Made by a program: the position numbers and the translations under genes
Shown: piece by piece, positions 23,363 to 42,767 of the stretch
Layout of the letters: each line of letters starts with the position of its first letter
How positions within the stretch are numbered: position 1 is the stretch's first letter
Source of the DNA: Candidatus Woesearchaeota archaeon
GTDB lineage: Archaea; Nanobdellota; Nanobdellia; SCGC-AAA011-G17; JAGVZF01
Direction: 5' to 3'
Assembly: GCA_964549185.1 (NCBI GenBank)
Contig: CAZJUI010000001.1
Location: forward strand, 850-64,849
DNA: 64,000 nucleotides
Notes under the pieces: model-generated
Databases searched by the model: none
What the model saw: the letters and a program-made list of their open reading frames with translations, nothing else
What the model was told of the DNA's origin: nothing

Positions 23363-23892
23363 CAACAATAGAGAAAGATTCTTTTTGTATTCAACAACAG
23401 GATAAGATTATTAGAGATACAATAGAATTAATTAATAAAAAAGAGCTTAACATATTGCAATTAGGTTGTAATTTTATTGATAATTCATTATTACTGGAAA
23501 AAAACGAAAAGTATAAAATAACATTAATAGATGATAAAAATGAAACAATTAATTTCAGTAAATTAAATATATCAAAATCACCATTAACAAAAACGAACTT
23601 TGAAGACAACACTTTCGATTTAACATTTAACATAGATGTAATAAATAAAACCCAAGATCCATTAAATGTAATAAAGGAGATGGTAAGAGTTACAAGAAAA
23701 TACGGAATGATATTATTAATATTTTCAAATAATTTTGATATAAAAAAAATAATAAAAGATATAAACATTAATTTAATAGATGAAAAGATTCCGGACTTGG
23801 ATGCAAAGTTAGCTGAATATGGAAACTTCAAGATATCAAAAAATCCCCTAAGTAAAAAAGGAAAAAATTATCTAATAATGTTCAAGATTTAG
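23341..23892 (+). CDS. Degenerate class I methyltransferase-like protein, paralog C.
   Basis: FDLTFNIDVI...VIKEMVRVTRKYGMILLIFSN matches the C-terminal half of the MTase paralogs. Its motif I region is degenerate (ILQLGCNFIDNS). Confidence 0.4.
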   Translation: MEEIKGITTIEKDSFCIQQQDKIIRDTIELINKKELNILQLGCNFIDNSLLLEKNEKYKITLIDDKNETINFSKLNISKSPLTKTNFEDNTFDLTFNIDVINKTQDPLNVIKEMVRVTRKYGMILLIFSNNFDIKKIIKDININLIDEKIPDLDAKLAEYGNFKISKNPLSKKGKNYLIMFKI

Positions 23893-26470: not shown

Positions 26471-28356
26471 TTCGTACTTTCTACTCTCTCCCAGGCGTCA
26501 TTATAATGTTTTCTTATCAATCTAGTATCGTAATAAACACTAATCCACATATATAATCTGGCAAAAAATAATCTTAATGTCCACCAAAATTCTCTCAAAT
26601 TTTTAGGATAAGATAAAGCCCAAAATGTTCCAATAAATACTTCATTAAAAAAAGATTTAACTCTCGGAAAATCAGGAGCATATTTGGTTAATGTTTCATG
26701 AGCCTTTGCTGTTCTTTTTCTTTGTTTAAACCATTCATCAAAATTATCAGGGTTCTTAACAAATACTTTAGCCTCTTTTACATACTTAATTTTATATCCT
26801 CTTTTCCAAAAATAATAAGGGATTATGCTGTCTTCAGCTACATCTAATGGAATCTTATGGATGATATTATTTCTAAAGGCAAATAAATATCCAGAACATT
26901 CTAAAAATTTCCCTTGTTCGGATAATTTTTTTCTTATTTTATGGGCTCCAGCATCAGCCAATAAATGACTCCAATATCCAAATATATCGTCTTTTGTATT
27001 AGATGAAACAATTCTTCCTGTAACACATCCTGTTTTAAGGTCAAAAAAAGATCTAGCAATTTCATTAATTGAATTTTCTCCCAAAACAACATCACCATCT
27101 GTAAAAATCAAAATATCTCCCTTTAATTCTTTAAATAATAAATTTATTGCATAGCTTTTTCCTATTCCAGGATCTTTAAAATATTTTATATTCTGTTTTT
27201 TATTTAGCTTATTAAATAATGTTTTAGCTTCTTCATCTGGACTTGCTATAATAATTTCATAGTCGTAATCTATTTGTTGTTTCAGTATAGAATCAATAGC
27301 CTTTGGCAAATTAGGTTCTTTAAAAGAAGTAACAATAATTGATAATTTATTTTTTATTAACCTATTCGCAGCATTAACAATATTATCTACATTCATCTTA
27401 TTCATACTTTGGCAGTCTGATTTATAACAACATAAACAATTAGAATTTGGCGTTAATCTTATACCTTGTCCATACAAATCTAGTTCTGCAGCAGATGTTG
27501 GACCAACTAAAACGACAACTTTCCTGTTCAGAGCTACAGCTAAATGTAATCCTAAGCTGTCGCTGGTTACAAAAACATTACAAATTGTTATTAATGCTGG
27601 AAATTCAAAAAGATCATTGCCACATCCCGTGTTTATTATAGGAACTTTGCTTAAAGAAATAATATTGTCATTTCTTTCTATCTCATCCTGCCCGCCAAAC
27701 AGCAATATTTTATATTTATAATTTTTATATAACATTTCAGCAAGTTTTGCTGTCTTTTCTATGCTTAATTTCTTTGATGGCCAAACTCCACCAGATCCTG
27801 TATTAATTCCTATAACAATATCCTCTTCTCTTATATTATATCTTCTCTTGAAATCACTTAAAAATTTCCCTTGTTCCCTATTTAATTTTAAATTCATAAA
27901 AGTCTTATCATAATCCACTCCAACCATATCGCTAATAATTTGTTGGTACGTTTTCTTATTTTTCTTTTTGAGAATATCATTTTGGGGTTTCTTGCCTAAT
28001 TTACTCATATCATACCATTCTTTTGCGCTTTCAGAGGGTATAACTCTAAGATTTTTATCTAAATAGTTTCCAATGATCTTTCCAGTTTTAATCTTTGTAG
28101 CCAATGCACAAGCTTCAAAATCTTCATCTAAGTTAATTACAATATCAAAATGCATTCCTTCTAGGTATTTTAAATTTACCTTGCTGTAATAAACTGCATC
28201 ATCAACAAATTTATTATTTTTTATTAGGTAATAAGCATTCTTTTTTGTAAGCCAATAAATCTTTGAATCTCTATATTTTTCTTTTAATGCTGGAAGTATT
28301 GCAGTTGTTCTTACTACATCTCCCATAGCTCCTAATTTAATTATAAGAATTTTCAT
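26467..28356 (-). CDS. Fusion protein: N-terminal GT9 (heptosyltransferase-like) plus C-terminal GT2 glycosyltransferase.
   Basis: The N-terminus MKILIIKLGAMGDVVRTTAILPALKEKYRDSKIYWLT is GT9. The C-terminal half, from about residue 340, has LSIIVTSFKEPNLPKAI...FTDGDV, a GT2 DxD region. 629 aa. It is translationally coupled to the upstream kinase. Confidence 0.65.
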   Translation of the reverse strand: MKILIIKLGAMGDVVRTTAILPALKEKYRDSKIYWLTKKNAYYLIKNNKFVDDAVYYSKVNLKYLEGMHFDIVINLDEDFEACALATKIKTGKIIGNYLDKNLRVIPSESAKEWYDMSKLGKKPQNDILKKKNKKTYQQIISDMVGVDYDKTFMNLKLNREQGKFLSDFKRRYNIREEDIVIGINTGSGGVWPSKKLSIEKTAKLAEMLYKNYKYKILLFGGQDEIERNDNIISLSKVPIINTGCGNDLFEFPALITICNVFVTSDSLGLHLAVALNRKVVVLVGPTSAAELDLYGQGIRLTPNSNCLCCYKSDCQSMNKMNVDNIVNAANRLIKNKLSIIVTSFKEPNLPKAIDSILKQQIDYDYEIIIASPDEEAKTLFNKLNKKQNIKYFKDPGIGKSYAINLLFKELKGDILIFTDGDVVLGENSINEIARSFFDLKTGCVTGRIVSSNTKDDIFGYWSHLLADAGAHKIRKKLSEQGKFLECSGYLFAFRNNIIHKIPLDVAEDSIIPYYFWKRGYKIKYVKEAKVFVKNPDNFDEWFKQRKRTAKAHETLTKYAPDFPRVKSFFNEVFIGTFWALSYPKNLREFWWTLRLFFARLYMWISVYYDTRLIRKHYNDAWERVESTK

Positions 28357-30758: not shown

Positions 30759-31679
30759 TTATCCGATTGCAATCAATACTGTTCCAAAAATCATAATTAA
30801 AGCAGCTACAACATTCTTTATTATTCCTCTTTCTTTAAAGAAAATATATCCATAGATTATGCTAAAAACAATGCTTAATCTTTTTACAGATATCATATAA
30901 GCATTTAAAGTTAAACTTTGCGCTTTGAAAGAAGCCAAGCTCATCAAAGCGCTTAATGTTCCTATTATCAACAATATCCATATATTAGTTTTACTAGCTG
31001 TCCTTATTGGATTTTCTTTAAATCTTATCATTATATATAATGTAGATACAATACAGATTGAAATTATAGCCAATCCAGAAACAGCTAATGGGTTTTTTGT
31101 TTGATTTATTAAAATTTTATACAGTGGAGTTACAACAGCATATAAAAAAGCAGCTATAAGCATATACATTGATCCTTTATCTCTGAATAAGCTTCTAATT
31201 GGTTGGAATGAAATAAATCTTCCTTCTGTTTTTATTATATAAGATCCAAGAAATATCAAAAAAATCCCGATTGCTCCCAATAATGATGGTATTTCATTCA
31301 AAAAAATCCATGATATTATTGTTAAAAAAACAGGTGTAAAACTCAAAAAAGGAACTGTAATTGCTAATCCAGATATTTTAATTGCCTTTACATATAAAAT
31401 TATCGCTATCATCTCTAAAATTCCTGTAACAAAAAGCAAGAGAATTGATAATAAATCTAAATTCGGAATCTTTACAATAAATAATGTTATTATAATTATT
31501 GGTAAAGAAAAAAACCATACTGCCCATGAAACAATATAATCATTATATCTATTTAACGCTAGTTTCTGAACTAAATTATTCGTAGCTGTACTTAGTGCTG
31601 CAAATAAAGATAGTATTAGCCAAAGCATATTTATATTAAAAAAACACAGTTTAAAAAACTTGTTATTAATTAAAAACAT
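30759..31679 (-). CDS. DMT-superfamily (EamA-like) 10-TM transporter.
   Basis: 306 aa, arranged as two blocks of five hydrophobic helices. The annotated start overlaps the divergent neighbour, so the true start may be the internal Met near 31628. Confidence 0.45.
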   Translation of the reverse strand: MFLINNKFFKLCFFNINMLWLILSLFAALSTATNNLVQKLALNRYNDYIVSWAVWFFSLPIIIITLFIVKIPNLDLLSILLLFVTGILEMIAIILYVKAIKISGLAITVPFLSFTPVFLTIISWIFLNEIPSLLGAIGIFLIFLGSYIIKTEGRFISFQPIRSLFRDKGSMYMLIAAFLYAVVTPLYKILINQTKNPLAVSGLAIISICIVSTLYIMIRFKENPIRTASKTNIWILLIIGTLSALMSLASFKAQSLTLNAYMISVKRLSIVFSIIYGYIFFKERGIIKNVVAALIMIFGTVLIAIG

Positions 31680-31707
31680 TTATAACTTTTTCCACCATTC
31701 CATATTT

Positions 31708-33471
31708 ATGAAAGATGTAAAGATCGGTGACAAGATAATTGGCAAAGGCCATCCTGTCTTTGTTATAGCAGAAACAGCCTCTAGCCATGTAGGAAATAAA
31801 GAAAAACTTAAACAACTAATTAAAGCTGCAATAGATTCAGATGCAGACGCAATTAACCTACAAAAATTCTATGCAAATGAGCTTGCTGTTCCTCAAAATC
31901 CACAGCATAAAGACTTAGCAATTATTGAACTTAAAGATTCAGATTGGAAAGAAATCCTAGATTATACTAAAACATTAAACACAATTATTATAGGAAATCC
32001 ATTTGATGAATCAAGTGTTGATTTTTTTGATCCTTATGTAGATGCTTTCAAAATCCACTCTACTGATATTAATAATCCAGAAATGTTAACCAAAGTTGCA
32101 AAAAAGAATAAACCTATGTTTCTCGGTATTGGAGGAGCAAAACCTTTTGAAATAAAAAGAGCAATTAAAATTCTTCAATCAACTGGAAATGATCAAATCG
32201 TCTTAATGCATGGTTTTCAAGCCTTCCCAACAAGATTAGAAGATAGTAATCTAAAATTAATACCGACAGCAGAAAAAGAATATGATCTTCCAACTGGTTT
32301 TCTAGATCATATTGATGCAGAGACAAAGATGGCAATGGTTCTTCCATTATTATCTGTAGTTCAAGGAGCTGTTTTAATTGAAAAACATATCACTCTAGAC
32401 AGAAAATTAAAAGAATATGATTACTTTTCTGCTTTACATCCAAATGAATTCAAAGAAATGATGTTCTTAATTAGAGAAACAGAAAAAGCAATCGGTCATG
32501 GACAATTTATTCAATCAGAAGGTGAAGTTGGATATAATACCATGATGAAAAAGAATTTAGTTGCAAAAGTTCAAATAAAAAAAGATACAATTTTAACAAA
32601 AGATATGATAACTTTCAAAAGAGCTCGAGTTAATCCAGGACCTTCTCCAATTGATATAGAAAAATTTATAGGTAAATCAATAAATAAAGACTTAAATGAA
32701 AATGATCCAATTACAATGGAAGATTTAAATCTTAAATCAATTATTACATTGGCTGTTAGAATGAAATCATCTAGATTGCCAAGAAAAGCTCTAGCTGTAG
32801 TTGAAGATCAAACTGTTATCGAACATTTAATTGATAGAATGAAACTTTGTAAAGTCCCATCTGATTTAATTTTATGTACATCAACTCATCCAGATGACGC
32901 TGTTTTAATAGATATCGCAAAGAAAAAAGATATAAAATATTTTGCAGGTTCAGAAGATGATGTTATGGATCGTTTCATTAAAGCAGCATTGCCTGAAAAA
33001 GCAGATATAATTGTAAGAGTTACAGGAGATAATATTTTCACAGATCCTGAATGGCTTGATGAAACAATAAGATTCCATATAAAAAATAATCTAGATTATT
33101 CATTGCAGGATGGACTTCCAATTGGTTGTGTTTCAGAAGTTATCACTCTACATAATTTAATTAAAGCTCATGAAGCAGCTCTAGATCCTGAAAATACAGA
33201 ATATATGACATATTATTTAAGAAATGAAGATTATTTCAAGGGAAAACAATTAAAAGTTTCAGATGAATTTTATTTTCCAAATTACAGATTAACAATAGAT
33301 AATCCAGAAGATTTACAATTAATTCAAGCAATCTTTAAAGAACTTTACACTCCTGGAAAAGTAATTCCATTAAAGGATGTTCTAAATTTAATAAATAAAA
33401 AGCCTGAATTGCTAAATATAAATAAAAATGTTCAAGGAATACAATTTACAGTTAAGGGTTTGAAAAGTTAG
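31708..33471 (+). CDS. Fusion: NeuB-like nonulosonic acid synthase (N-terminal) plus SpsF/PseF-like cytidylyltransferase (C-terminal).
   Basis: The N-terminus KIGDKIIGKGHPVFVIAETASSHVGN...DADAINLQKF parallels the NeuB ORF at 37739. The C-terminal half has LAVRMKSSRLPRKAL (the SxRLPxK cytidylyltransferase motif, CTP_transf_3). I moved the start to ATG 31708; the track's TTG at 31660 would overlap the divergent gene. Confidence 0.65.
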   Translation: MKDVKIGDKIIGKGHPVFVIAETASSHVGNKEKLKQLIKAAIDSDADAINLQKFYANELAVPQNPQHKDLAIIELKDSDWKEILDYTKTLNTIIIGNPFDESSVDFFDPYVDAFKIHSTDINNPEMLTKVAKKNKPMFLGIGGAKPFEIKRAIKILQSTGNDQIVLMHGFQAFPTRLEDSNLKLIPTAEKEYDLPTGFLDHIDAETKMAMVLPLLSVVQGAVLIEKHITLDRKLKEYDYFSALHPNEFKEMMFLIRETEKAIGHGQFIQSEGEVGYNTMMKKNLVAKVQIKKDTILTKDMITFKRARVNPGPSPIDIEKFIGKSINKDLNENDPITMEDLNLKSIITLAVRMKSSRLPRKALAVVEDQTVIEHLIDRMKLCKVPSDLILCTSTHPDDAVLIDIAKKKDIKYFAGSEDDVMDRFIKAALPEKADIIVRVTGDNIFTDPEWLDETIRFHIKNNLDYSLQDGLPIGCVSEVITLHNLIKAHEAALDPENTEYMTYYLRNEDYFKGKQLKVSDEFYFPNYRLTIDNPEDLQLIQAIFKELYTPGKVIPLKDVLNLINKKPELLNINKNVQGIQFTVKGLKS

Positions 33472-33512: not shown

Positions 33513-33857
33513 ATGGAACAATTAGACAAAAAAATAACTTTTGAAGATGAAGTAACAGTAAATGATCCACTTTATTCCAGTTTAGCTACAACTATTTCTG
33601 CAAGTGGATTTCAAGCAGGTTATGACCAACGGCCATGGAGGGCTCCAAAAAAAGATGATTTGGTAAGTTCCAAACACATCGATATTTTTTCCTATGAAAC
33701 AAGAAGAACTGGTATTTTTGGATTAAATAAAGAAGCAGAATGGATTGGGAGACTATATCTAAATGATCCTTATTATGGAGCAAGAGAAAATTGCAGATGG
33801 GTATTAGATGTTCACGGAAGAAAAAATATTCCGGTATTAACAGAGCTTGCAAAATAA
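33513..33857 (+). CDS. Hypothetical small protein. Its C-terminal domain is shared with the ORF at 34279.
   Basis: 114 aa. The C-terminal GRLYLNDPYYGARENCRWVLDVHGRKNIPVL aligns with GYLYFNDPNKWKMEVYGRNNINKL of the ORF at 34279. Confidence 0.35.
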   Translation: MEQLDKKITFEDEVTVNDPLYSSLATTISASGFQAGYDQRPWRAPKKDDLVSSKHIDIFSYETRRTGIFGLNKEAEWIGRLYLNDPYYGARENCRWVLDVHGRKNIPVLTELAK

Positions 33858-33974
33858 ATATCAAAACCACATAATGTAAATGTCCATCTAAGATTAATGA
33901 CTGAAAGAACAATATATGAAGGACAATATGAAGGAGATGACATCTGTTAATTTTGATTTATTATATAAATAAAA

Positions 33975-34277
33975 ATGATAGACCCAGAAGATGTAAAATT
34001 AGTAAAGGGAAGGGCAAGTGATTTTAGATTAACCAAAAATTTCACAAATGATTTAGATTTAGAATTTATCTGTATGGTATCATCTGCAGATAGTGGAGAT
34101 ATTCAAGCAGTTAAAGGCAATGTTGATGCAGGTATAAAAGAATTAGCTGCTCGGGCTGGAGCAAATTATATATTTGAATTAGAATATGTTTTTCATTTTG
34201 ATAATAATAATGCTGTAATGAATATCATATGCTATGGAGATGCTTACTTAATAAAGCCTAGAAGAGATAATCAATAA
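33975..34277 (+). CDS. YbjQ/UPF0145-family (DUF74) protein.
   Basis: AARAGANYIFELEYVFHF...MNIICYGDAYLIKP matches the conserved GA(N)A(V)...G(T)AV core of YbjQ-family proteins. 100 aa. Confidence 0.5.
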   Translation: MIDPEDVKLVKGRASDFRLTKNFTNDLDLEFICMVSSADSGDIQAVKGNVDAGIKELAARAGANYIFELEYVFHFDNNNAVMNIICYGDAYLIKPRRDNQ

Positions 34278-34278
34278 A

Positions 34279-34758
34279 ATGCCAATCGATGATGCGTTAA
34301 ATGATTTGCCAAAATCAAAAGAAGCGTCAAAACAGATAGTTGCACCTCCAGAGCCAGAGCAAGCAAATAAAGTAACCTTCATTGATACAATACAGCAATT
34401 TAGAAATAGTTTACAATATCATCTTCCTTACCAACTGGCAACAATTATAAAAAGTAAGGGGTTAGAAGTAACATGGGATAATGGTAATATAGTTTCTTCT
34501 TTAGATTCTCAGCATTTTCTAAAATTTATATCGATGGGAATTGCAGCCCAAAAAAGGTTTTGGTTTGGTCATGACTGGATAGGTTATTTATATTTTAATG
34601 ATCCTAATAAATGGAAAATGGAAGTTTATGGAAGAAATAATATAAATAAATTAAAAAATCTTGCTGACGAAATATCAAAACGGTATTCAAAAGATATAGA
34701 GCTTATATTAGAATTAGAATATCCAAGACCAAAGCCAGTAGGATTTTATAATTTATAA
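34279..34758 (+). CDS. Hypothetical protein sharing a C-terminal domain with the ORF at 33513.
   Basis: 159 aa. Its start is 2 nt after the stop of the YbjQ-like gene. See the shared motif above. Confidence 0.35.
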   Translation: MPIDDALNDLPKSKEASKQIVAPPEPEQANKVTFIDTIQQFRNSLQYHLPYQLATIIKSKGLEVTWDNGNIVSSLDSQHFLKFISMGIAAQKRFWFGHDWIGYLYFNDPNKWKMEVYGRNNINKLKNLADEISKRYSKDIELILELEYPRPKPVGFYNL

Positions 34759-34759
34759 T

Positions 34760-35902
34760 CTAAATCTTTAATTCTTCATAAATTAACCTAACAACCCTTT
34801 CAGTAGCTTTCCCATCATTACCTTCAACAAAGCTTTTCCTTCTTTCTTTTAATTCTTCTCTAAATTCTCCATTATATAATATTTTCATTAAATTAGGAAC
34901 TAACTCTCTTGTCTCATAAACGCCAAGAGAATAACCATTTTTATTAGTAATTAATGGATCTTCTGTTTTTAATCCAACTTGTAAACTTAAAACATCGGTA
35001 TCTAATAAACAAGCTTCCATTAATGAAGTTGACATCATCCCAACTACCAAATTAGAAGCTTTCATTGTCTCTCTCGTATTATAATTATTATTATACTCTC
35101 TTTTTGTTGCATCTTCCTTTCCACTAATAACAAAATTCATATCTTTTAACAATAATGTTCTTTCTGCAATATCTTCAAATGTCTCTCTGGGATGAAATTT
35201 AATCACAAAAGTTCCATGATATCCCATGTCATTCAATCCCTTAGACAATATTTTAAAAATTGTTTCTTCATTATAACCCCAATCAGTCGTTTTATTAGCT
35301 TTAAGATCTCCTTTAATTGGCTGTGAAATAAATGTTATCAAACTTCCTTCTGGGTGCACTCCAAAATATTCTCTTATCTCTTTTCTTTTATTAATTGTAA
35401 ATTTAGCATTTAATTCTCCTATATCATCAAAGTAAGGGTTTCCTGTAATCTTTAATCTTTCTCTAGGTAAACTTTCTTTAACCATTTTCTCCAAACTTTC
35501 TGCATCTAATGCTGTATGAATATCAGGCATGCATCCTAAGTTATCTCCAGTTTTATCATTTCTAACTCTTACAATATAATTTACAGGTAAATCTATAACA
35601 GATAAACTTCTAACTCCTATCCTTCTAGCAGCTAATATTCCTTCTTTTTCAACACACCATCCACCACTGCTTCCAGTAACTAAAAAGTTTGGTTTTTCTT
35701 CTTCCATAGCTATATCACCACTCAAGTAATCATCTAGTTTTCTATGGGGTAAGCCAGCTTGTGTAAATAAACTAACAGCAGGTCCGTTAGCTATTAATGT
35801 CAAATCCACTTTATCATCTTTTTGCAATCTTCTTGCAACAGGGATAACAGAATTCGCACTTCCAGTATATTGCGCTGCCACCATCACTTTAGGTTTTGTC
35901 AC
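34760..35902 (-). CDS. Putative GT-B-fold glycosyl/nonulosonate transferase with a KxHP motif.
   Basis: 380 aa Rossmann-like protein. The VIKFHPRE motif is paralogous to IIKLHPKD in the ORF at 35942. HP motifs are catalytic in bacterial GT-B sialyltransferases and KpsC/S-type transferases. This is an assignment by motif only. Confidence 0.3.
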   Translation of the reverse strand: MTKPKVMVAAQYTGSANSVIPVARRLQKDDKVDLTLIANGPAVSLFTQAGLPHRKLDDYLSGDIAMEEEKPNFLVTGSSGGWCVEKEGILAARRIGVRSLSVIDLPVNYIVRVRNDKTGDNLGCMPDIHTALDAESLEKMVKESLPRERLKITGNPYFDDIGELNAKFTINKRKEIREYFGVHPEGSLITFISQPIKGDLKANKTTDWGYNEETIFKILSKGLNDMGYHGTFVIKFHPRETFEDIAERTLLLKDMNFVISGKEDATKREYNNNYNTRETMKASNLVVGMMSTSLMEACLLDTDVLSLQVGLKTEDPLITNKNGYSLGVYETRELVPNLMKILYNGEFREELKERRKSFVEGNDGKATERVVRLIYEELKI

Positions 35903-35941
35903 TTTTTATCACAAAATAAAGGTGTAGAAAAATATATAAAT

Positions 35942-37726
35942 CTATTTTATAGATATTTCATCAATAAGATTTATAACTCTTTCGGTGCTTTTTCCATCAA
36001 TTTTATAAGCATAATCCTTAATAAATTTCTCCATGTTTTTTTCTAGTTTTTCCTTAATCTTTTTATTGTTAAAAACCTCATTTATTGCCTTTTTCAATTC
36101 ATTTTCTTCTTTTATATCAATTACACATCCATAATCATTGTAATCAATCATTTCATTACTTCCTTTTATGTTGGCTAAATTTAAAGTAATTACAGGAACA
36201 TTAAACAACATAGATTCAATAACAACAGTAGATGAAGCCCTGCTTATAGTTAAATCTGCAATATTCAAAAAATTATAAATATCATAATCTTTAACAACAA
36301 CAACTTTGTTTTTAATATCCTTTAATCTGCTATTATAGAAATCAACCTCATCTTTTGGATGTAATTTTATTATTAGTTGCTCATCTTGCAAAGAATTAAT
36401 AACCGCCTTGAACATATCTTCTTTCTCTGGAACTGTCTGTGTTCCAAATAATATTATCTTTTTATCTTTATCCAAATTAAATTGTTTATATACTTCTTCT
36501 TTATTATATTGTTTATTTTTAATAATATCGAACTTACTGGCTCCAGTTATAACTATTTTCTTATCATTAACATTATTTTGTAATAAAAATTTCTTTGTAG
36601 CTTCTCCCCAAACAGCTATTTTTGTGCTTGTAACAGGAACAAATCCCAATCTTCCAGCAACTCCATGTTGTAAAACTAAAGATTTTATCTCTAATTTATT
36701 CCCGACAAAAGATACTGTTTTTCCAAATCTATGAACATCACTGCCTATAACAATAACATCTATCTTCTCTTTTTTTATAACAATTTTAATTCCTTCAATT
36801 AGTCTAACAACTTCATAAAAATGTTTAAACACGGTATAATACAATTCATCTTCTAAAATTTCCCATAAATTAATATTATCATACATAAATCTCCTATCTT
36901 GTTGTAAAATTTCCCATATCTGATCAAGCTCTTTCTTCTTTTTATCAAGAATATTATTTATTTCATTTAAATCATAATCCGCAAATGTATTAAATTTAAT
37001 GCCCTTTTTCGCAAATGCCTCCTGAACGTCTAAAGCTAAAGCGAATACTAAATAATTTTTGCCTTGTTTTTTCATCTCTTCTATAATCGGAAGCATTATT
37101 TGCGGATCTAAATTTAAATAGCTAAAAAACATCACTCTCTTATCTCCATAGTTTTTATTCTTATAATTAAAATTTTTTAACTTTACATAATTATCCAAAA
37201 CAACTGGTTTTATGTATCTTCCAGCAATAAATTTTGTTTTTTTTCTAAATATATTCATAAGATTAACATTCCCATTGCTAATAATCTCATATTTAGCATT
37301 CAGTTCCTTCAAACTAGTAATTATTGTTTTGCTTAGAAGATCTTTTCCATCAACTATCAAAAACATATCTGGTTTCTCTTTCTCAATAACCTTCTTTATT
37401 AATTCTACATTTACAATCAAGCTTCTTAAAACAAGTTCAAAATGTAAGCTTGTACATTCATATAATGGAATTCCATCATGCTTTGCCAATTTTTTTGCTT
37501 CAGAAAAACTAATCATTTTCCAATTAATGCTCATATTTCTTATTTTATCACTTAATTCATTAATTAATTTAGTTTCATTGATATAATCACTCTTCGTTTT
37601 AACATTCGTAGAATTAATTTTTTTGTTAGAAAGATTTAGTACTATTCCATCCCCTAAATCTTTTAATCTTCTATCAATCTTATCTAGTTCTTTCTCGTCT
37701 TTTACTATTCCGATAATCCTTGTCAT
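35942..37726 (-). CDS. Two-domain putative GT-B-like transferase (KxHP motif), paralogous to the ORF at 34760.
   Basis: 594 aa. The C-terminal half contains VLQHGVAGRLG and IIKLHPKDE. It is co-oriented with the ORF at 34760 and with NeuB. Confidence 0.3.
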   Translation of the reverse strand: MTRIIGIVKDEKELDKIDRRLKDLGDGIVLNLSNKKINSTNVKTKSDYINETKLINELSDKIRNMSINWKMISFSEAKKLAKHDGIPLYECTSLHFELVLRSLIVNVELIKKVIEKEKPDMFLIVDGKDLLSKTIITSLKELNAKYEIISNGNVNLMNIFRKKTKFIAGRYIKPVVLDNYVKLKNFNYKNKNYGDKRVMFFSYLNLDPQIMLPIIEEMKKQGKNYLVFALALDVQEAFAKKGIKFNTFADYDLNEINNILDKKKKELDQIWEILQQDRRFMYDNINLWEILEDELYYTVFKHFYEVVRLIEGIKIVIKKEKIDVIVIGSDVHRFGKTVSFVGNKLEIKSLVLQHGVAGRLGFVPVTSTKIAVWGEATKKFLLQNNVNDKKIVITGASKFDIIKNKQYNKEEVYKQFNLDKDKKIILFGTQTVPEKEDMFKAVINSLQDEQLIIKLHPKDEVDFYNSRLKDIKNKVVVVKDYDIYNFLNIADLTISRASSTVVIESMLFNVPVITLNLANIKGSNEMIDYNDYGCVIDIKEENELKKAINEVFNNKKIKEKLEKNMEKFIKDYAYKIDGKSTERVINLIDEISIK

Positions 37727-37738
37727 ACTCTATCATAA

Positions 37739-38809
37739 CTATTTCTTCAATTCTCCCACATGTTCCCAATCTAATATATCATCCTCTTTCATATCCTTTA
37801 CTGCTTTTCTTCCTATAATCTCTCTAAAGAATCTCGGATTAATTCCTGTACCGGGTCTTTTTGATGTTATATTTTTAATGTCAAATATCTCCCCAGCCTT
37901 AATATCTCTATTAGCTACAATGCTTCTTCTTGCTAATCTTTGAGCCGGCTCTTCAACTTTAATTGGTCGTCTTGCTAATGAACTTCCTAATGCACTTTCG
38001 ATCTGTTTTATATTTGTGACCATCTCTTTCAATTCTTTAGGATCTACAGATAACCAATGATCCGCACTTCCCTTCAATGCTTTATCTATGGTATAATGTT
38101 TCTCTATCATCTTTGCTCCTAAACTAACAGCTCCGATTGGCACCAAAGTTCCTAAACTATGATCACTTAATCCAATTAAATAATCCGGAAATATTTTCTT
38201 TAAAGTTGGAATCATATTCAAATTCATATCTTCAGTTGGTGTCGGATAAGACAAAATGCAATGCAACAATATTATTTGATTATTTCCCTCTTCTTCAATC
38301 ACCCTTGCAGCTTCTTCTATCTCCCCAATTGTAGCTGCTCCTGTTGATAATGCCATTGGTAATCCTTTTTTTGCTATATGTCTTAAAAGATTTAAATGAG
38401 TTATATCCGCACTTGCAATTTTATACATTGGCACCCCAATCTTTTCCAAAAAATCGGCACTTTCCTCGTCAAAGGGTGTTGAAAAAAATATTATTCCTAA
38501 TTCTTCAGCATATTTCTGCATTTTAATAAAATCTTCTTCGCTAAGATAATCGAAGTTCTTGTATTCATCATACTGTGTTTCATCACTTTCTGTCCAATAT
38601 TTGGGAGAATTTTTTATTGCTATTTTTTCAGCTTTATATGTTTGGAATTTTATGGCATCAGCTCCATTTTCTTTTGCCTTTTTTATTAATTCATAACCTC
38701 TTTCTAACATACAATCATGATTTACTCCAGCTTCAGCTACAACAAAACATGGCTCATCATCCCCTACATATCTATTTCCTATCTTTATTCTTGTCACCAT
38801 TTCAACCAC
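37739..38809 (-). CDS. neuB: N-acetylneuraminate/nonulosonic acid synthase (NeuB/PseI/LegI family) with a C-terminal SAF domain.
   Basis: CFVVAEAGVNHDCMLE...ADAIKFQTYKAEK, STPFDEESADFL, ILLHCILSYPTPTEDMNLN and a C-terminal KAGEIFD...ITSKRPGTG SAF domain. The match to E. coli NeuB blocks is strong. Confidence 0.85.
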   Translation of the reverse strand: MVEMVTRIKIGNRYVGDDEPCFVVAEAGVNHDCMLERGYELIKKAKENGADAIKFQTYKAEKIAIKNSPKYWTESDETQYDEYKNFDYLSEEDFIKMQKYAEELGIIFFSTPFDEESADFLEKIGVPMYKIASADITHLNLLRHIAKKGLPMALSTGAATIGEIEEAARVIEEEGNNQIILLHCILSYPTPTEDMNLNMIPTLKKIFPDYLIGLSDHSLGTLVPIGAVSLGAKMIEKHYTIDKALKGSADHWLSVDPKELKEMVTNIKQIESALGSSLARRPIKVEEPAQRLARRSIVANRDIKAGEIFDIKNITSKRPGTGINPRFFREIIGRKAVKDMKEDDILDWEHVGELKK

Positions 38810-40193
38810 CCTTATAGTTTCTTATTATCTGTTCAGCAAGCCACAAATCATATTCATTATATATCCTTACAGCTTCGTTCGGCATCATCTCTACATAAGC
38901 TACACTATTCCCAATAATTCCATTATTGTTTAAATTTTCTAAAGTTGTAATATAAAATGCTCCATTTTCTTCTAGGATAGTATCTTTTTCATCTCTCAAT
39001 AATCTTTTATTAAATAATGGCTCGATTCCATATCTTCCTGGTTTCCAATGAAAATTAAGGTTTGCACAAACAGAGACTATGCTATCTGTTTTAAATATTA
39101 ACTGGGTAAAAATTCCTTCTTTTATATGCTCACTTGTTTTAAAGGGGCTTATCAAATGTAAAACAGCAATTAAATCAGGAACATAATCATCATTCTTCTT
39201 CAAATAATCAACAACATGTCTTACAACATCATCAACATGAACTGTTTTTTTTGCTAAATCAACAGGTCTTTTGATAACATAAGCTCCTATTTTTTCAGCA
39301 GCACTTGCAATGTCATAATCTTCAGTAGAAACAACAATTTTATTAAACAATTCAGTTTTTTTCGCTTCATCTATCGTATAAGATAATAAAGGTTTTCCAT
39401 TTAAATTAGCGATTGGAATTTTAATCCCATTAATCATGTCGCCCCTAGCAGGAATAACAGCTAATATTTTCAAATTTTTTAACTTTCCATCATAATGTCT
39501 TTTAACAAATTCTTCCTTTACAATTCTTTTAGAGTGTAAAATCCCTTTCATATTCTTAGTCATATTTGCGCCATGTCTTCTATAATAAAACAAAGGCAGA
39601 TTAATATTTCTAACTTTAAATTTAGTAATAAACTTCATCCAAAAATCATAGTCTTCTCCAATCTTTAAATTTTCATTATATCCCCCAATTTCATCATAGC
39701 ATGTTCTCTTGTACATCGCTCCAGCAGCTAAAGGACTTCTTTGCAGTAAATCAACTTCTTCATTAACTTTCATCAATCTATTATGCTCCAATATCTTTCC
39801 ATCTTCATCTATGGTATAATAATCTGAATAAACCAAATCAACATCTTTATTTTCATACAAAAATCTTTCTTCTACCAATAGCAAATTATCATCAAAATAA
39901 TCATCAGCATCTAATCTTATTATAAAATCCCCCTGAGACATACTAATTCCTTTATTACAAGCTGCACTTAATCCAACATTATCTACCCTTATTACTTTCA
40001 AATTATTTGGAAATTTTGATTTATAACTCTGAATAACATCTTGAGTCTCATCTGTACTTCCATCATCTACTATAATAATCTCAAAATCCTTATATGTCTG
40101 TCTAAATAAACTTTCCAGGCATTTACCTAAAAACCTTCCGTAATTGTGAGCTGTCACTATCACACTTACTCTCGGTTTCTTAATAGTCTCCAT
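38802..40193 (-). CDS. Fusion: GT2 glycosyltransferase (N-terminal) plus NeuA-like CMP-nonulosonate synthetase (C-terminal).
   Basis: The N-terminus is VSVIVTAHNYGRFLGKCLESLFRQTYKDFEIIIVDDGSTDET (GT2). The C-terminus ILAVIPARGDMINGIKIPIANLNGKPLLSYTIDEA...VVSTEDYDIASAAEKIGAYVIKRP...LHLISPFK parallels NeuA blocks (IPARGGS, LxGKPLIAYTI, VSTDD, QPTSPLR). Confidence 0.7.
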   Translation of the reverse strand: METIKKPRVSVIVTAHNYGRFLGKCLESLFRQTYKDFEIIIVDDGSTDETQDVIQSYKSKFPNNLKVIRVDNVGLSAACNKGISMSQGDFIIRLDADDYFDDNLLLVEERFLYENKDVDLVYSDYYTIDEDGKILEHNRLMKVNEEVDLLQRSPLAAGAMYKRTCYDEIGGYNENLKIGEDYDFWMKFITKFKVRNINLPLFYYRRHGANMTKNMKGILHSKRIVKEEFVKRHYDGKLKNLKILAVIPARGDMINGIKIPIANLNGKPLLSYTIDEAKKTELFNKIVVSTEDYDIASAAEKIGAYVIKRPVDLAKKTVHVDDVVRHVVDYLKKNDDYVPDLIAVLHLISPFKTSEHIKEGIFTQLIFKTDSIVSVCANLNFHWKPGRYGIEPLFNKRLLRDEKDTILEENGAFYITTLENLNNNGIIGNSVAYVEMMPNEAVRIYNEYDLWLAEQIIRNYKGG

Positions 40194-40228: not shown

Positions 40229-41305
40229 CTATATATTAACCTTTATCTCAGAAGGTTTAGCATATCTATAACCCTCATGCAGATTGCAAGTTCTGCAAGC
40301 AGGCATAACATCTAACTTGCTTTGTTTATGCAACTCTCTTAATTGATTTAGTATTGCTCCATTCCATATCTCTTTTAATGTTTGTTTAGTAACATCACCC
40401 ACAACATTTTTTCTAAACCAATCTCCACAGCACATCATAACCTTTCCATCCCACGCTACCATCAATCTTTGGAATGGCTGTGGACAAGTTTTTCTTCCTA
40501 AGGTAATTTGATCATATTCAATTGATCTATCATTTTCTTCTCCTTCCCCCCTATTGCTGTAATCATTAGTTGCAACATGATCTACTATTCCTTCCCACAT
40601 TTTGATAAATTGGTCAACTTCATGAACATTATCTTTCATCCTAACCATCTGTATTCTGATAAATGGTTTTTTCTTTCCCATTTCATTTCTTATTCTTACA
40701 AAATCTTTAATATTTTTCATTAAAATGTCATATTTTGCTCTCACTCTTATTTTTTCATAAGTTTCCTTAGTTGCTCCATCCATAGAAAATATTATTCCAT
40801 CTAATCCAGCTTCTATCAATCCTCTTATTTTATTTTCATTTAATAAAGTTCCATTAGAATTTGTTTGTAATTCCTTTATGCCTTTATCTTTTGCATATTT
40901 CACCATTTCAATAAATTTAGGATGTATTAATGGTTCTCCTCTCCAATTAAGTTTCATAGAATATAATCCTTCTTTTGCACATTCATCTACAATTTTATGA
41001 AATAAATCCATTGTAATAAATCCGTCTTGAATTCCGCTTCTATCAAAACTCTGTGGGCACATTACACATCTTAAATTGCATGCATCACTCGGTTCTATAT
41101 CAACATGTGTTGGGAATTTAGGTATTAATCCAAATCTTGCAACTCTCGGGCTCCAATTCCATTTAGCCCTATACCATAAGTACTTAGGATCTTTCTTATT
41201 CATAAACTTCTTTAATTTAGCTTTAAATCCACCTTGTATGTGATGTCCACTTCCACCATAGAAGTGTTGTTTCTCGTTTGTTTCATTACTTTGTTCAGTT
41301 GACAT
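40229..41305 (-). CDS. Radical SAM protein with a C-terminal SPASM/twitch Cys-rich domain.
   Basis: The CxxxCxxC triad is SDACNLRCVMC. The C-terminus CPQPFQRLMVAWDGKVMMCCGDW...PACRTCNL provides auxiliary Fe-S cysteines. Confidence 0.7.
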   Translation of the reverse strand: MSTEQSNETNEKQHFYGGSGHHIQGGFKAKLKKFMNKKDPKYLWYRAKWNWSPRVARFGLIPKFPTHVDIEPSDACNLRCVMCPQSFDRSGIQDGFITMDLFHKIVDECAKEGLYSMKLNWRGEPLIHPKFIEMVKYAKDKGIKELQTNSNGTLLNENKIRGLIEAGLDGIIFSMDGATKETYEKIRVRAKYDILMKNIKDFVRIRNEMGKKKPFIRIQMVRMKDNVHEVDQFIKMWEGIVDHVATNDYSNRGEGEENDRSIEYDQITLGRKTCPQPFQRLMVAWDGKVMMCCGDWFRKNVVGDVTKQTLKEIWNGAILNQLRELHKQSKLDVMPACRTCNLHEGYRYAKPSEIKVNI

Positions 41306-41312
41306 ATTAATC

Positions 41313-42767
41313 TTAAACAGTAGCTTCCCCGCTTTTTCCGGTTATCAAATTTAAAGCGCCTAAAGCTCCTCTCGCATAATATTTTACTTGTTCAAATGAT
41401 TTAATTCCAATAAACATCTTCCATAAATAACTTGGTCTCATATAAAATTCTTTGTAAGCTTTCTTTCTTAACTCTTGTAATTGGTCTGTTGTTAATTCCC
41501 TAGATCTTATTAATGGATCTTCAGCTATCTGCACCCAATTATCCCAATTTGGATCTGAAATTAAGTTTTCTTTTACAGTAATATCATACAATCCGGTTCC
41601 AACAATCGGGATTGCCAAGAAAAAATAAGCTAACTGAGGATTAATCTCTTTAGCTAATTTTATTGTTTCTTCAAATGTTTCTGTTGTCTCTCCAGGATAT
41701 CCTAAAATAAAAGATGCTGATGCTGGAATTCCAACTTCATGTATTAACTTAAAAGCTGCTTTTATTTGTGCAGGGGTTTGATCTTTTTCCATTGCATCCA
41801 ATATTTTTTGACTTCCTGACTCTACTCCAAATCTAACAAAATAACATCCTGATTTTTTCATCTTTTCTAAGCTTTCTCTGTCACAATGATTAACTCTAGT
41901 CAAACAGTTCCAATGCAGATCATAATCTCTTTTTATTAATCCATCTAAAATTGGATTCATTCTGCTTTTATTAATAACAAAAATTTCATCATTAAATTCC
42001 AAGCAATGAATATTAAATTTATCAACCAAATAGTCTATTTCTTCCAATGTTCTCTCAACACTCCAATATCTTACTTTTCTCGTCCACATAACCTTAGAAG
42101 CACAAAAATTACATCTGTAAGGACATCCTCTTAAAGAAAAAAATATTGTGAATGGTTGTAATTTAACACCTTTAACCTGGAATGAACTATGGTGCGCAGG
42201 TGGTCTATATAATTCCATAGGCAATAAATCATAAGCTGGCATTGGCAAAATATCTAAATTTTCAATTAATGGTCTTGGAGCAGTCATTCTTATCTGTCCA
42301 TTGTCTCTGTAAATCATTCCATTAACTTTAGATAAATCTTTTTTTCCTCTTTTTTCTAATTTATCTAATAGCTCAACTGTTGTTATCTCCCCCTCACTTA
42401 TAACTCCATAATCAACAATTGGAAATTCTTTCATTGTCTCAAAAGGCAGTGCAGTCATATGATCTCCACCTAAGAAAGTCTTAACATTAGGACTAACATT
42501 TCTAGCTATCTGTAGAACATCACATGCTTTTTTTACTGTAGGTGTAACAGCCCCAACTCCAACTACATCAACATCTTTTGGAATATGTTTATGCAATTCA
42601 CTCATCGGAATTTGTAAAGCAACAGCATCTAGAATACTCACTTTATGCCCATTCTCTCTCATATAAGCAGCAAGATAAGCTAATCCCATTGGTTGATTAA
42701 TTCCTGCAACTGTTGGAACTTTCTTATATACTTCCTGGTAGCTTGGGTTGATGAGTTGGACTTTCAT
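41313..42767 (-). CDS. B12-binding radical SAM protein, paralog 3.
   Basis: N-terminal B12-binding domain (MKVQLINPS...). The CxxxCxxC triad is GCPYRCNFC. 484 aa. Confidence 0.8.
   Translation of the reverse strand: MKVQLINPSYQEVYKKVPTVAGINQPMGLAYLAAYMRENGHKVSILDAVALQIPMSELHKHIPKDVDVVGVGAVTPTVKKACDVLQIARNVSPNVKTFLGGDHMTALPFETMKEFPIVDYGVISEGEITTVELLDKLEKRGKKDLSKVNGMIYRDNGQIRMTAPRPLIENLDILPMPAYDLLPMELYRPPAHHSSFQVKGVKLQPFTIFFSLRGCPYRCNFCASKVMWTRKVRYWSVERTLEEIDYLVDKFNIHCLEFNDEIFVINKSRMNPILDGLIKRDYDLHWNCLTRVNHCDRESLEKMKKSGCYFVRFGVESGSQKILDAMEKDQTPAQIKAAFKLIHEVGIPASASFILGYPGETTETFEETIKLAKEINPQLAYFFLAIPIVGTGLYDITVKENLISDPNWDNWVQIAEDPLIRSRELTTDQLQELRKKAYKEFYMRPSYLWKMFIGIKSFEQVKYYARGALGALNLITGKSGEATV

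Follow-up and report, generated by a model that had tools for sequence, protein, structure and literature searches.

A nonulosonate operon in an archaeal N-glycosylation island

The window, a 64,000-nucleotide stretch of a Candidatus Woesearchaeota contig, is one large N-glycosylation island of a DPANN (Nanoarchaeia-like) archaeon, with genes for AglB, a GlcNAc-1-P-transferase-like protein, flippase-like proteins and many glycosyltransferases. Within it, six minus-strand genes form an operon in the order B12-radical SAM, radical SAM/SPASM, GT2–CMP-synthetase fusion, NeuB, ORF2 and ORF1, separated by 7, 35, -8, 12 and 39 nt. ORF1 and ORF2 are both real, and translation confirmed the coordinates and the motifs VIKFHPRE and IIKLHPKD given in the initial annotation, which had described the pair as paralogous Rossmann-type proteins and candidate nonulosonate (NulO) transferases. 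The operon and its convergent neighbor comprise the following genes.

41313-42767, minus strand: B12-binding radical SAM protein, operon gene 1
40229-41305, minus strand: radical SAM/SPASM protein, operon gene 2 (the two radical SAM genes together span 40229-42767)
38802-40193, minus strand: fusion of GT2 and CTP_transf_3 (CMP-sugar synthetase), overlapping NeuB by 8 nt
37739-38809, minus strand: nonulosonate synthase of the NeuB family, operon gene 4, with 12 nt between it and the downstream ORF2
35942-37726, minus strand: ORF2, 594 aa, ATG start, three-domain (N'-N-C) GT-B protein, main candidate CMP-nonulosonate transferase
34760-35902, minus strand: ORF1, 380 aa, GTG start, short-form (N-C) paralogue, candidate second transferase or NDP-sugar hydrolase
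31660-33471, plus strand: fusion of NeuB and CTP_transf_3, 603 aa, TTG start, convergent neighbor of ORF1

The NeuB within the operon scored 293 bits against Pfam NeuB and carries a SAF domain; it reached 360 bits with TIGR03569 and 313 bits with PseI, both short of the equivalog cut-offs and too low to assign a sugar type. The GT2 fusion matched Pfam Glycos_transf_2 (117 bits), CTP_transf_3 (37.5 bits) and PseF (74 bits). A non-hydrolysing WecB (425 bits) is encoded elsewhere in the window. We found no homologs of PseG, NeuC or PseB in the window, including by phmmer with archaeal PseG sequences, and the role of nucleotide-sugar hydrolase is therefore vacant. Rfam gave no RNA in the window, and promoter and terminator scans, which are uninformative for an AT-rich archaeon, stayed close to the shuffled expectation.

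Fold, domains and protein families

The AlphaFold (AF2) models of ORF1 (pLDDT 86.1) and ORF2 (pLDDT 82.5, pTM 0.82) both have a two-Rossmann GT-B fold, and neither protein contains transmembrane segments; together with the NeuB and CTP_transf_3 neighbors, the models bear out the description as Rossmann-type proteins tied to NulO genes. BLASTP aligned the two with 24% identity over 266 aa (E 2e-10) and their HP motifs in register, while profile–profile alignment of the two families with hhalign gave an E value of 7e-46 and placed residues 3-379 of ORF1 on 195-594 of ORF2. The two are true paralogues, as had been proposed, with a similarity far beyond chance. The earlier description of ORF2 as a two-domain protein needs revision, as three domains were found.

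37265-37726, minus strand: ORF2 N' domain, aa 1-154, internal duplicate of the GT-B N-domain without QHG
36551-37144, minus strand: ORF2 GT-B N-domain (acceptor side), aa 195-392, with D330 and Q353-H354-G355 (QHG at 36662-36670)
35945-36550, minus strand: ORF2 nucleotide-binding C-domain, aa 393-594, with T394-G395..D400, K454-x-H456-P457, S498/T500 and E504
36350-36373, minus strand: IIKLHPKD motif, ORF2 aa 452-459
35183-35206, minus strand: VIKFHPRE motif, ORF1 aa 233-240, with H237 invariant in 81/81 relatives

Columns 1-190 of the ORF2-family alignment match columns 195-392 with a probability of 99.7% (E 6e-27), as compared to an E value of 0.14 against the C-domain. In the C-domain, G395 and S498 are invariant among 78 relatives, and H456 (75/78), T500 (73/78) and K454 (72/78) are nearly so; in the N-domain, G355 (72/78), D/E330 (71/78) and H354 (65/78) are the conserved positions. 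Mean identity to ORF2 across its family is 26% in the N-domain versus 33% in the C-domain, a greater variability that would be expected if acceptors differ. The family profile collected 3,828 clusters at E<=1e-30; ORF2-type proteins, which occur in archaea, Omnitrophota, Bacteroidota and Clostridia, fall into thousands of clusters at 50% identity, the shortest members (about 440 aa) with the N' domain missing. ORF2 is a member of a large uncharacterised family with a duplicated N-terminal domain. In the ORF1 family, T153-G154, P156, D159 and H237 are invariant in 81/81 relatives, and S291 (79), N155 (78), D104 (76) and P238 (75) are kept in most of the 81.

Single-sequence searches of the PDB returned no significant match. 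The nearest solved structures to both ORFs are UDP-GlcNAc 2-epimerases, not members of GT38, GT52 or GT80 or KpsC, and hhalign matched an epimerase alignment across the whole GT-B core at 99% probability. The epimerases, including the hydrolysing NeuC and LegG, share with the ORFs full-length profile homology, the TGN..D linker and HP(R), and with ORF2 also the Asp of GD(T). ORF2 passes the Pfam Epimerase_2 (PF02350) gathering score of 30.6 bits by 1.5 bits (32.1), while ORF1 fails it (16.9 bits, E 0.003); the NCBIfam wecB model (TIGR00236) gave 26 bits against a cut-off of 210, and the NeuC model (TIGR03568) did not match. The differences lie in the catalytic residues. Among the three of the E. 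coli enzyme (D95, E117 and E131), ORF2 keeps the first as D330, has H354 in place of E117 and lacks E131, and none of the three is clearly kept in ORF1 in either hhalign or PDB profile alignments. The QHG of ORF2 aligns with the catalytic VEAG of the epimerases and D330 with the Asp of GD(T); in place of the VEAG Glu, ORF2 has His and ORF1 a shifted Asp, and the PEE.NR Glu and GTRPE are absent. An assignment to an epimerase-like fold with a non-transferase function had been named in advance as evidence against a transferase. Half of this applies here: both proteins have such a fold, though not the residues with which epimerases catalyse.

The best sequence-profile matches in the PDB also include the TagF-like polymerase Cps3D (2e-13) and TarL (6e-11). 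TagF, TarL and Cps3D are like the ORFs in their GT-B fold and their TG.PR.D and (K/M)HP motifs, and have CMP as leaving group; they differ in transferring an alditol phosphate instead of a glycosyl group, and the ORFs do not reach the Pfam Glyphos_transf family (PF04464), with 13.7 bits for ORF1 against a cut-off of 22.1, no match for ORF2 and weak matches in many homologs. The TarB and TarF models match 5/78 and 3/78 ORF2-family relatives, and an N-domain profile meant to set the catalytic His of TarL against QHG aligned TarL only from the linker onward.

The HP motif (H456-P457 in ORF2, kept in 75/78 relatives; H237-P238 in ORF1, 81/81) had been taken as a sign of GT52, GT80, GT38 or KpsC. 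It aligns with IHPR of the UDP-GlcNAc 2-epimerases and MHP of TarL, and because these carry HP at the same aligned place, the motif is not diagnostic of sialyltransferases. A search for the accompanying D/E-D/E-G motif ([DE][DE]G) found no match anywhere in ORF1 or ORF2; at the corresponding end of the strand, ORF2 has QHG and ORF1 has IDL, and QHG presumably occupies the site at which D/E-D/E-G sits in sialyltransferase structures. Members of GT38, GT52 and GT80, as well as of GT99, GT107 and GT118 (KpsC, WbbB and KpsS1), use a CMP-ulosonate donor and carry HP in a Rossmann-type C-domain. No sequence or structural similarity to GT38, GT52 or GT80 members was found apart from weak matches to polyST (E 0.04-0.05), and the family profile matched KpsC in the PDB (E 8e-4) over about 90 residues, all within the C-domain; against Pfam Capsule_synth (KpsC/KpsS-type), ORF2 scored 15.1 bits with a cut-off of 20 and ORF1 did not match.

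The top curated match of both ORFs is NF046086, the BFO_1060 family, with 102 bits (E 3e-29) for ORF2 and 42 bits (5.6e-11) for ORF1. Neither reaches the cut-off of 200 bits, nor does the best of the 78 relatives (E 3.7e-38), and on these scores both ORFs are related to the BFO_1060 family without being members of it. Among the 78 ORF2-family members, NF046086 matched 77 and TIGR04396 matched 76, as compared to only 42 for wecB. In Tannerella, knock-outs of BFO_1060-family genes keep a fully modified CMP-Pse or CMP-Leg pool and lose the terminal NulO, which complementation restores, and the family therefore acts after CMP activation in that organism. The Tannerella forsythia proteins (Tanf_01245 and TFUB4_00887) are like the ORFs in their GT-B fold, their HP-containing C-domain, to which the similarity is chiefly confined, and the position of their genes beside those for CMP-Pse or CMP-Leg synthesis. 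They are about 445 aa long, have reported D/E-D/E-G and DXD motifs and serve bacterial O-glycosylation, whereas ORF2 has 594 aa, a duplicated N-domain, QHG in place of D/E-D/E-G and a setting in an archaeal AglB island. The second-best curated match, TIGR04396 (“surface carbohydrate biosynthesis protein”), is an uncharacterised family with a best E value of 9e-33 among the 78 members; ORF2 (67.8 bits) and ORF1 (20.4 bits) score below its cut-off of 125 bits. In Herbaspirillum, a TIGR04396 gene is annotated downstream of neuABC and adjoins a LIC12162-family gene, LIC12162 having a single annotation-level mention in the literature searched.

Genomic context of the two families

For the ORF2 family, context was compared in 40 archaeal and bacterial loci of at least 9 kb, within a radius of 10 kb. 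By raw counts, NeuB lies within this distance in 28/40 loci and a CMP-synthetase in 29/40. Long and short forms of the HP GT-B protein recur together, and radical SAM gene types similar to those of the operon recur beside ORF1- and ORF2-like genes. A Methanobacteriaceae locus (L019) encodes PseB, PseC, PseG (203 bits, cut-off 154) and PseI together with a 439-aa HP GT-B protein. In Methanolobus bombayensis (L005), the order is AglB, a long HP GT-B protein, CMP-synthetase, NeuB, formyltransferase, NeuC (457 bits), aminotransferase, dehydratase and a short HP GT-B protein. The ORF2-like gene is an addition to a complete canonical Pse or Leg pathway in these two archaeal loci; as both already have the pathway with its hydrolase, we largely rejected a role of ORF2 as a replacement for NeuC or PseG.

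The ORF1 family divides into clades, and ORF1 belongs to clade A, whose members keep the set of ORF1, an ORF2-like gene, NeuB and two CMP-synthetases; the relative P0003, 52% identical to ORF1, has the same neighborhood of an ORF1-like gene and a NeuB–CMP-synthetase fusion. Clade-B genes lie between an aminotransferase and a CMP-synthetase gene, and their operons lack a canonical hydrolase; they overlap the upstream aminotransferase gene at its stop codon and often have the CMP-synthetase gene directly downstream. In clade C, many loci lack a NeuB gene within 10 kb.

Proposed functions and alternatives

Taking fold, family and context together, the best explanation, to which we give slightly better than even credence, is that ORF2 is a CMP-nonulosonate transferase acting on a lipid-linked glycan and, on weaker grounds, that ORF1 is a second transferase. 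The candidacy put forward in the initial annotation is strengthened for ORF2 by its kinship with the BFO_1060 family, its frequent NeuB neighbors and its presence as an extra gene at loci with PseG or NeuC, and weakened for ORF1 by a possible biosynthetic role as hydrolase. ORF2 is a good, if unproven, candidate for the enzyme that attaches NulO to archaeal surface glycans; ORF1 is ambiguous between a second transferase and the missing NDP-sugar hydrolase.

We infer the donor, acceptor and chemistry as follows. ORF2 would be a soluble or peripheral GT-B enzyme whose family may have descended from the same GT-B branch as the UDP-GlcNAc 2-epimerases and TagF/TarL. The co-transcribed NeuB and cytidylyltransferase would make its donor, a nonulosonic acid activated with CMP; its acceptor would be a glycan carried by a lipid (dolichol) on the cytoplasmic side, which AglB would then move to protein. 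The C-domain is predicted to hold CMP, with K454-x-H456-P457 and S498/T500 on the phosphate and E504 on the ribose, and His456 and Lys454 might stabilise the departing CMP. H354, at the site of the epimerase catalytic Glu and backed by D330, could serve as the base and take the proton from the acceptor hydroxyl, and the N' domain may add acceptor or membrane binding. In ORF1, the conserved D104 would take the position of the base; paired with the adjacent NeuB–CMP-synthetase fusion, the protein would complete a system in which synthases, activating domains and transferases each number two.

A precedent from Bacillus counts against this kind of argument. SpsB of B. subtilis, a TagB-like protein with HP and DEG motifs, adjoins Leg genes, a case resting on motif and context like that for ORF1 and ORF2. 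Yet it is dispensable: Leg is still transferred in the mutant, and for this reason SpsB was dropped as a supporting precedent.

ORF1 may be a hydrolase because PseG, NeuC and PseB are missing from the window, where WecB is present, as they are from many operons of the ORF1 family. With ORF2 kept as the transferase, ORF1 would then stand in for PseG or LegG/NeuC as a non-canonical analogue with an epimerase-like GT-B scaffold, freeing a hexosamine (for example from the UDP-ManNAc of the WecB in the window, or from a 2,4-diacetamido-trideoxyhexose nucleotide) for NeuB and PEP. This division of labor, which we regard as less likely than not, is consistent with the recurrence of canonical PseG or NeuC in only 5/27 NeuB-bearing ORF1-family loci as compared to 14/28 in the ORF2 family, with the 95 unassigned ORFs of 11 such ORF1-family loci, among which no recurrent PseG or NeuC match appeared, with the placement of the clade-B genes and with the joint recurrence of long and short forms. 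It also agrees with the N-domain, at 34-35% identity between ORF1 and clade B, being conserved at least as well as the C-domain (27-29%). However, ORF1 itself falls in clade A; the relatives closest to it from other lineages (L059 and L060) have a PseG-like gene as well, and L117 and L124 combine NeuC (336-360 bits) with an ORF1-like gene. The many clade-C loci without a nearby NeuB and the unrecognisable epimerase triad argue in the same direction, as do the PseG model (TIGR03590), which neither ORF matched at E<=0.1, and the much closer relation of ORF1 to the ORF2 family (hhalign 7e-46 versus 9e-19 for the epimerases) and BFO_1060 than to Epimerase_2.

That neither ORF is a transferase, both being epimerase-derived enzymes for hydrolysis, epimerisation or another modification of nucleotide sugars in nonulosonate biosynthesis, seems unlikely to us. 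The 99% match over the GT-B core, the narrow pass of ORF2 on Epimerase_2 and the epimerase name given to one family member would fit it; E117 and E131, however, are replaced or absent across the family, the wecB and NeuC models score far below their cut-offs, the canonical pathway is already complete at L019 and L005 and the closest curated family works downstream of CMP activation. Least probable is a pair of TagF/TagB-like phosphotransferases that use a CDP-donor for alditol or sugar phosphate, with NulO added elsewhere, for instance by the GT2 domain of the CMP-synthetase fusion. The Cps3D and TarL matches with their shared TG.P..D and H-P motifs, the weak Glyphos_transf matches of ORF1 and many homologs and the fusion itself, which suggests coupled activities, point that way, but the window showed no gene for making CDP-glycerol or CDP-ribitol, Glyphos_transf stays below threshold, TarB and TarF reach only 3-5 of 78 members and the linkage is specifically to NeuB and CTP_transf_3. 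Nor is any GT2 enzyme known that uses a CMP-sugar.

A broader proposal joins the transferase reading of ORF2 with the hydrolase question, and we offer it tentatively, as something short of an even chance. The ORF2-type family and its short-form sisters might be the general, as yet unclassified family of NulO (Pse/Leg/Neu) transferases of Archaea and many uncultured bacteria, derived from a UDP-GlcNAc 2-epimerase-like ancestor by replacement of the catalytic Glu with His or Asp, and one short-form clade might be a new NDP-sugar hydrolase replacing PseG or LegG in reduced genomes, a possible non-orthologous replacement.

The N-glycans of some archaea are capped by nonulosonic acids; in a documented case, Halorubrum sp. 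PV6, the glycosyltransferases are given only as unassigned. No enzyme attaching NulO in any archaeon has been identified in the literature searched, in line with the initial annotation, and nothing was found there on CMP-Pse5Ac7Ac with a GT-B enzyme. Beyond Maf, FlmG, KpsS1 and the Tannerella enzymes implicated by genetics, very few bacterial Pse or Leg transferases are known, and B. subtilis is still without one. The analysis provides a concrete and widespread candidate family with named predicted catalytic residues and a clear genomic signature, and the question is testable in a cultured archaeal host that carries such genes, Methanolobus bombayensis DSM 7082. If they are transferases, these proteins can potentially serve glyco-engineering with Pse or Leg. 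One family member is named “UDP-GlcNAc 2-epimerase” in NCBI, and misannotation of this kind is likely to be systematic.

The two ORFs and their operon

The initial annotation had described two adjacent ORFs with shared motifs, and both were confirmed at the coordinates listed below, with VIKFHPRE at residues 233–240 of ORF1 and IIKLHPKD at residues 452–459 of ORF2 in the translations. Judged from their sequences, ORF1 and ORF2 are real paralogues: they are 24% identical over 266 aa (BLASTP, E 2e-10) and their HP motifs align, and the alignment of the ORF1-family and ORF2-family profiles (E 7e-46) matches ORF1 residues 3–379 to ORF2 residues 195–594. The AlphaFold models are confident (pLDDT 82.5 for ORF2 and 86.1 for ORF1) and have a two-Rossmann GT-B core in both proteins, while no transmembrane segments were found in either. 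ORF2 has a third domain (aa 1–154, nt 37265–37726), a tandem copy of the protein's own GT-B N-domain (hhalign E 6e-27, as compared to E 0.14 against the C-domain). This duplicate, N', keeps the EKPD strand motif without the QHG site, and the linker at 153–192 is of low confidence (AlphaFold pLDDT below 50). The N'-N-C layout is common to most top representatives of the ORF2 family.

ORF2 and then ORF1 stand at the end of a tightly packed six-gene operon on the minus strand, with gaps of 7, 35, −8, 12, and 39 nt.

Features of the operon and of the surrounding island (ORF1 and ORF2 from the ORF listing)
41313–42767, minus: B12-radical SAM gene, ORF2/ORF1 operon
40229–41305, minus: radical SAM/SPASM gene, same operon
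38802–40193, minus: GT2 + CTP_transf_3 fusion, same operon, 8-nt overlap with NeuB
37739–38809, minus: NeuB, same operon
35942–37726, minus: ORF2, long paralogue (N'-N-C), 594 aa, adjoins ORF1
34760–35902, minus: ORF1, short paralogue (N-C), 380 aa, GTG start
31660–33471, plus: NeuB + CTP_transf_3 fusion, convergent with ORF1
11768–14374: AglB/STT3 of the glycosylation island
7916–9031: WecB, a genuine non-hydrolysing epimerase (425 bits), the sole epimerase gene in the window

The entire 64 kb is a glycosylation island, where a Glycos_transf_4 gene and flippase-like genes are accompanied by numerous genes of the GT2, GT4, and GT9 types. A PseC-like aminotransferase and a NeuD-like acetyltransferase lie about 17–20 kb away. 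Homologs of the PseB/LegB dehydratase, PseG, and NeuC/LegG were found nowhere in the 64-kb window, despite its two NeuB genes; either the precursor genes are located elsewhere or a non-canonical route is in use. Both NeuB proteins score under the NeuB and PseI equivalog cut-offs, and the profiles give no nonulosonate type. In the closest genome record, a Candidatus Nanoarchaeia MAG, ORF2 is 92% identical.

Fold and catalytic motifs

For both ORFs, the top curated profile was NCBIfam NF046086, “BFO_1060 family glycosyltransferase” (ORF2, 102 bits, 3e-29; ORF1, 42 bits, 5.6e-11), with TIGR04396 next; all NCBIfam scores are under the curated cut-offs. ORF2 narrowly passed Pfam Epimerase_2 (32.1 vs 30.6) and also matched Glycos_transf_1 and, weakly, Capsule_synth; the Pfam matches of ORF1 were sub-threshold only (Epimerase_2, Glyphos_transf, and polyST). 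Against solved structures, the best 49 Foldseek matches of the ORF2 model were all epimerases, followed by TarL, and neither GT38, GT52, or GT80 sialyltransferases nor KpsC appeared among the structure matches listed. The PDB sequence-profile search returned the TagF-like Cps3D (2e-13), a diacylglycerol glucosyltransferase, the M. jannaschii epimerase (3e-12), TarL (6e-11), and KpsC (8e-4).

The HP motif had been taken as a sign of a sialyltransferase or KpsC-type family. We found that it aligns with IHPR of the epimerases and with MHP of TarL, so it is shared across this entire GT-B branch and does not single out sialyltransferases, and the family assignment drawn from it finds no support. 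The D/E-D/E-G motif named together with HP had no match ([DE][DE]G) in a search of the full ORF1 and ORF2 proteins. TG.P..D of the ORFs aligns with TGN..D or TG.PR.D in the PDB-profile and epimerase alignments.

The strand end that bears the catalytic Glu in epimerases (VEAG) corresponds to Q353-H354-G355 in ORF2, where H354 is kept in 65 of 78 relatives, and to I103-D104-L105 in ORF1, where D104 is kept in 76 of 81. The epimerase Asp is retained in ORF2 as D330, and the Glu of PEE.NR and the GTRPE motif are missing from both ORFs. With catalytic motifs thus altered or missing on an epimerase-like fold, ORF1 and ORF2 have an epimerase-derived fold without being canonical epimerases. An ORF2-family member in Asaccharospora irregularis (P0020, WP_073126003.1, locus L010) carries the name “UDP-N-acetylglucosamine 2-epimerase” in both NCBI and UniRef; this is likely a systematic misannotation, as the family is without the epimerase catalytic Glu residues.

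Gene neighborhoods and candidate functions

Searching 1.8 billion cluster representatives with the ORF2-family profile yielded 3,828 clusters at E<=1e-30, as compared to just 15 by a word-index search; the best 150 of the 3,828 are mostly full-length, about 440–700 aa, the majority 600–670 aa. A genome scan gave 45 ORF2-family loci, with hosts in Nanoarchaeia, Woesearchaeota, Methanosarcinaceae, Methanolobus, Methanobacteriaceae, Methanoregula, Promethearchaeota, Omnitrophota, Bacteroidales, Clostridia, and others. Among the 40 loci that span 9 kb or more, a NeuB homolog lies within 10 kb of the ORF2-family gene in 28 and a CMP-synthetase in 29. Only a minority of genomes have NeuB, in one copy or two, and judged against this general frequency its linkage to the ORF2 family would be far above chance.

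Two of the loci, both archaeal, have a complete canonical pathway. The Methanobacteriaceae locus L019 has genes for PseB, PseC, a cytidylyltransferase, PseG (203 bits, cut-off 154), and PseI, and only the cytidylyltransferase does not exceed its equivalog cut-off; an HP GT-B protein is encoded there as well. In the cultured isolate Methanolobus bombayensis DSM 7082 (L005, NZ_JAGGKD010000001.1 346792–367703), the order is AglB, an unassigned 372-aa ORF, a long HP GT-B protein (645 aa), CMP-synthetase, NeuB, formyltransferase, NeuC (457 bits), aminotransferase, dehydratase, a short HP GT-B protein (384 aa), and a radical SAM/SPASM gene. This cluster is Leg-like and adjoins the oligosaccharyltransferase, and its long and short HP GT-B pair mirrors ORF2 and ORF1. 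L019 and L005 are decisive against ORF2-like proteins supplying a missing biosynthetic step, and the cultured methanogen would make L005 a good experimental system.

The only experimentally anchored relative is BFO_1060. The Tannerella forsythia genes Tanf_01245 and TFUB4_00887 (strain 92A2 name, BFO_1060) adjoin CMP-Pse or CMP-Leg genes; when they are knocked out, the O-glycan is without its terminal Pse or Leg derivative although the fully modified CMP-sugar is still present, and complementation restores the glycan. The role is known from genetics. Herbaspirillum annotation places TIGR04396 and the LIC12162 family downstream of neuABC. The same motif-plus-context argument applies to B. subtilis SpsB, yet SpsB is dispensable for Leg transfer. 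Work on Halorubrum PV6 left its Leg transferase without an assigned gene, which makes the ORF1 and ORF2 proteins a concrete, testable candidate family.

The reading of both ORFs as nonulosonate transferases holds up in part, as a reasonable candidate function for ORF2, for which we put it somewhat above an even chance; in both families the function is inferred. An alternative candidate for the transferase is the GT2 domain fused to the CMP-synthetase. If ORF2 is the transferase, its C-domain would hold the CMP-nonulosonate by K454-x-H456-P457, S498/T500, and E504, and the N and N' domains would hold the lipid-linked glycan acceptor. H354, with help from D330, may deprotonate the acceptor hydroxyl, and CMP would depart, stabilized by His456 and Lys454, before AglB moves the finished glycan onto protein.

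For ORF1, the transferase reading is about evenly balanced with a serious rival, in which it is a non-canonical NDP-sugar hydrolase. ORF1 could perform the same chemistry with D104 as base, on the product of the adjacent NeuB-CMP-synthetase fusion, or alternatively use water as acceptor and an NDP-hexosamine as substrate. The rival is serious because canonical PseG or NeuC is present in 5 of 27 NeuB-bearing ORF1-family loci (vs 14 of 28 for the ORF2 family), because no recurrent PseG or NeuC was found when 95 unassigned ORFs of 11 NeuB-bearing ORF1-family loci were scanned with NCBIfam, and because the window itself lacks a hydrolase homolog. However, a canonical hydrolase and an ORF1-like gene occur together in five loci, and epimerases and PseG are much more distant from ORF1 than the ORF2 family and BFO_1060 are.

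The position of ORF1 within its family also counts against the hydrolase. A metagenome scan gave 132 ORF1 relatives, of which 80 loci were kept, and a neighbor-joining tree with context labels has three clades. Clade A comprises the window ORF1, its 91% ortholog, P0003 (52% identical), and L059–L061; its genes adjoin NeuB, an ORF2-like gene, and two CMP-synthetases, with a PseG-like gene also in L059 and L060. Clade B proteins (about 325–350 aa, e.g., P0008), outside which ORF1 falls, have a fixed order in PseB/PseC/NeuB operons, with an aminotransferase immediately preceding the clade B gene and often a CMP-synthetase immediately following. Clade C is often without NeuB nearby.

A conserved module, in which a short HP GT-B gene (product about 325–350 aa) comes immediately after an aminotransferase and a CMP-synthetase is next in several, was seen in the metagenome and MAG loci L048, L055, L094–L096, L100, L111, L112, L125, L127, L130, and L134, inside PseB/PseC/NeuB operons and often with a GFO/IDH/MocA oxidoreductase. 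No recognizable PseG or NeuC was found in these module loci.

Other genes of the island

Both CTP_transf_3 fusions in the window are unusual; that of GT2 to the CMP-sugar synthetase (CTP_transf_3) is seen again in a Methanolinea locus (L024), and that of NeuB to CTP_transf_3 beside the ORF1 homolog P0003. Between the NeuB-CMP-synthetase fusion and ORF1, the plus strand has three small ORFs at 33513–34758 (114, 100, and 159 aa), the 159-aa ORF being without a family match, and the P0003 loci have a 92-aa ORF at the equivalent position.

The island has four B12-binding radical SAM genes (2643–4061, 16685–18028, 41313–42767, and 46824–48350) and the one radical SAM/SPASM gene at 40229–41305. Such genes occur near ORF1-like genes in 18 of 45 loci; near ORF2-like genes, the B12 type is found in 8 and the SPASM type in 10 of 40. 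Their recurrence suggests a radical modification, e.g., C-methylation, of the nonulosonate or its N-acyl groups.

LPS-style heptose genes are present in this archaeon (22316–23362 and 25484–28356), namely an RfaE-domain-I-like heptose-7-phosphate kinase (262 bits), a GT9 heptosyltransferase-like gene, and a GT9 + GT2 fusion. The minus strand at 56159–57164 encodes a HEPN-domain protein together with a nucleotidyltransferase (Polbeta/NTP_transf_2), and such pairs are typical of toxin-antitoxin-like modules. The island also encodes a carbamoyltransferase and two membrane proteins of the PMT_2 type, which resemble dolichyl-phosphate-mannose protein mannosyltransferases (50922–52595, 23882–25414, and 52656–54326, all minus); these genes hint that sugars are carbamoylated and that there is a second glycosylation route, either O-type or lipid-linked.
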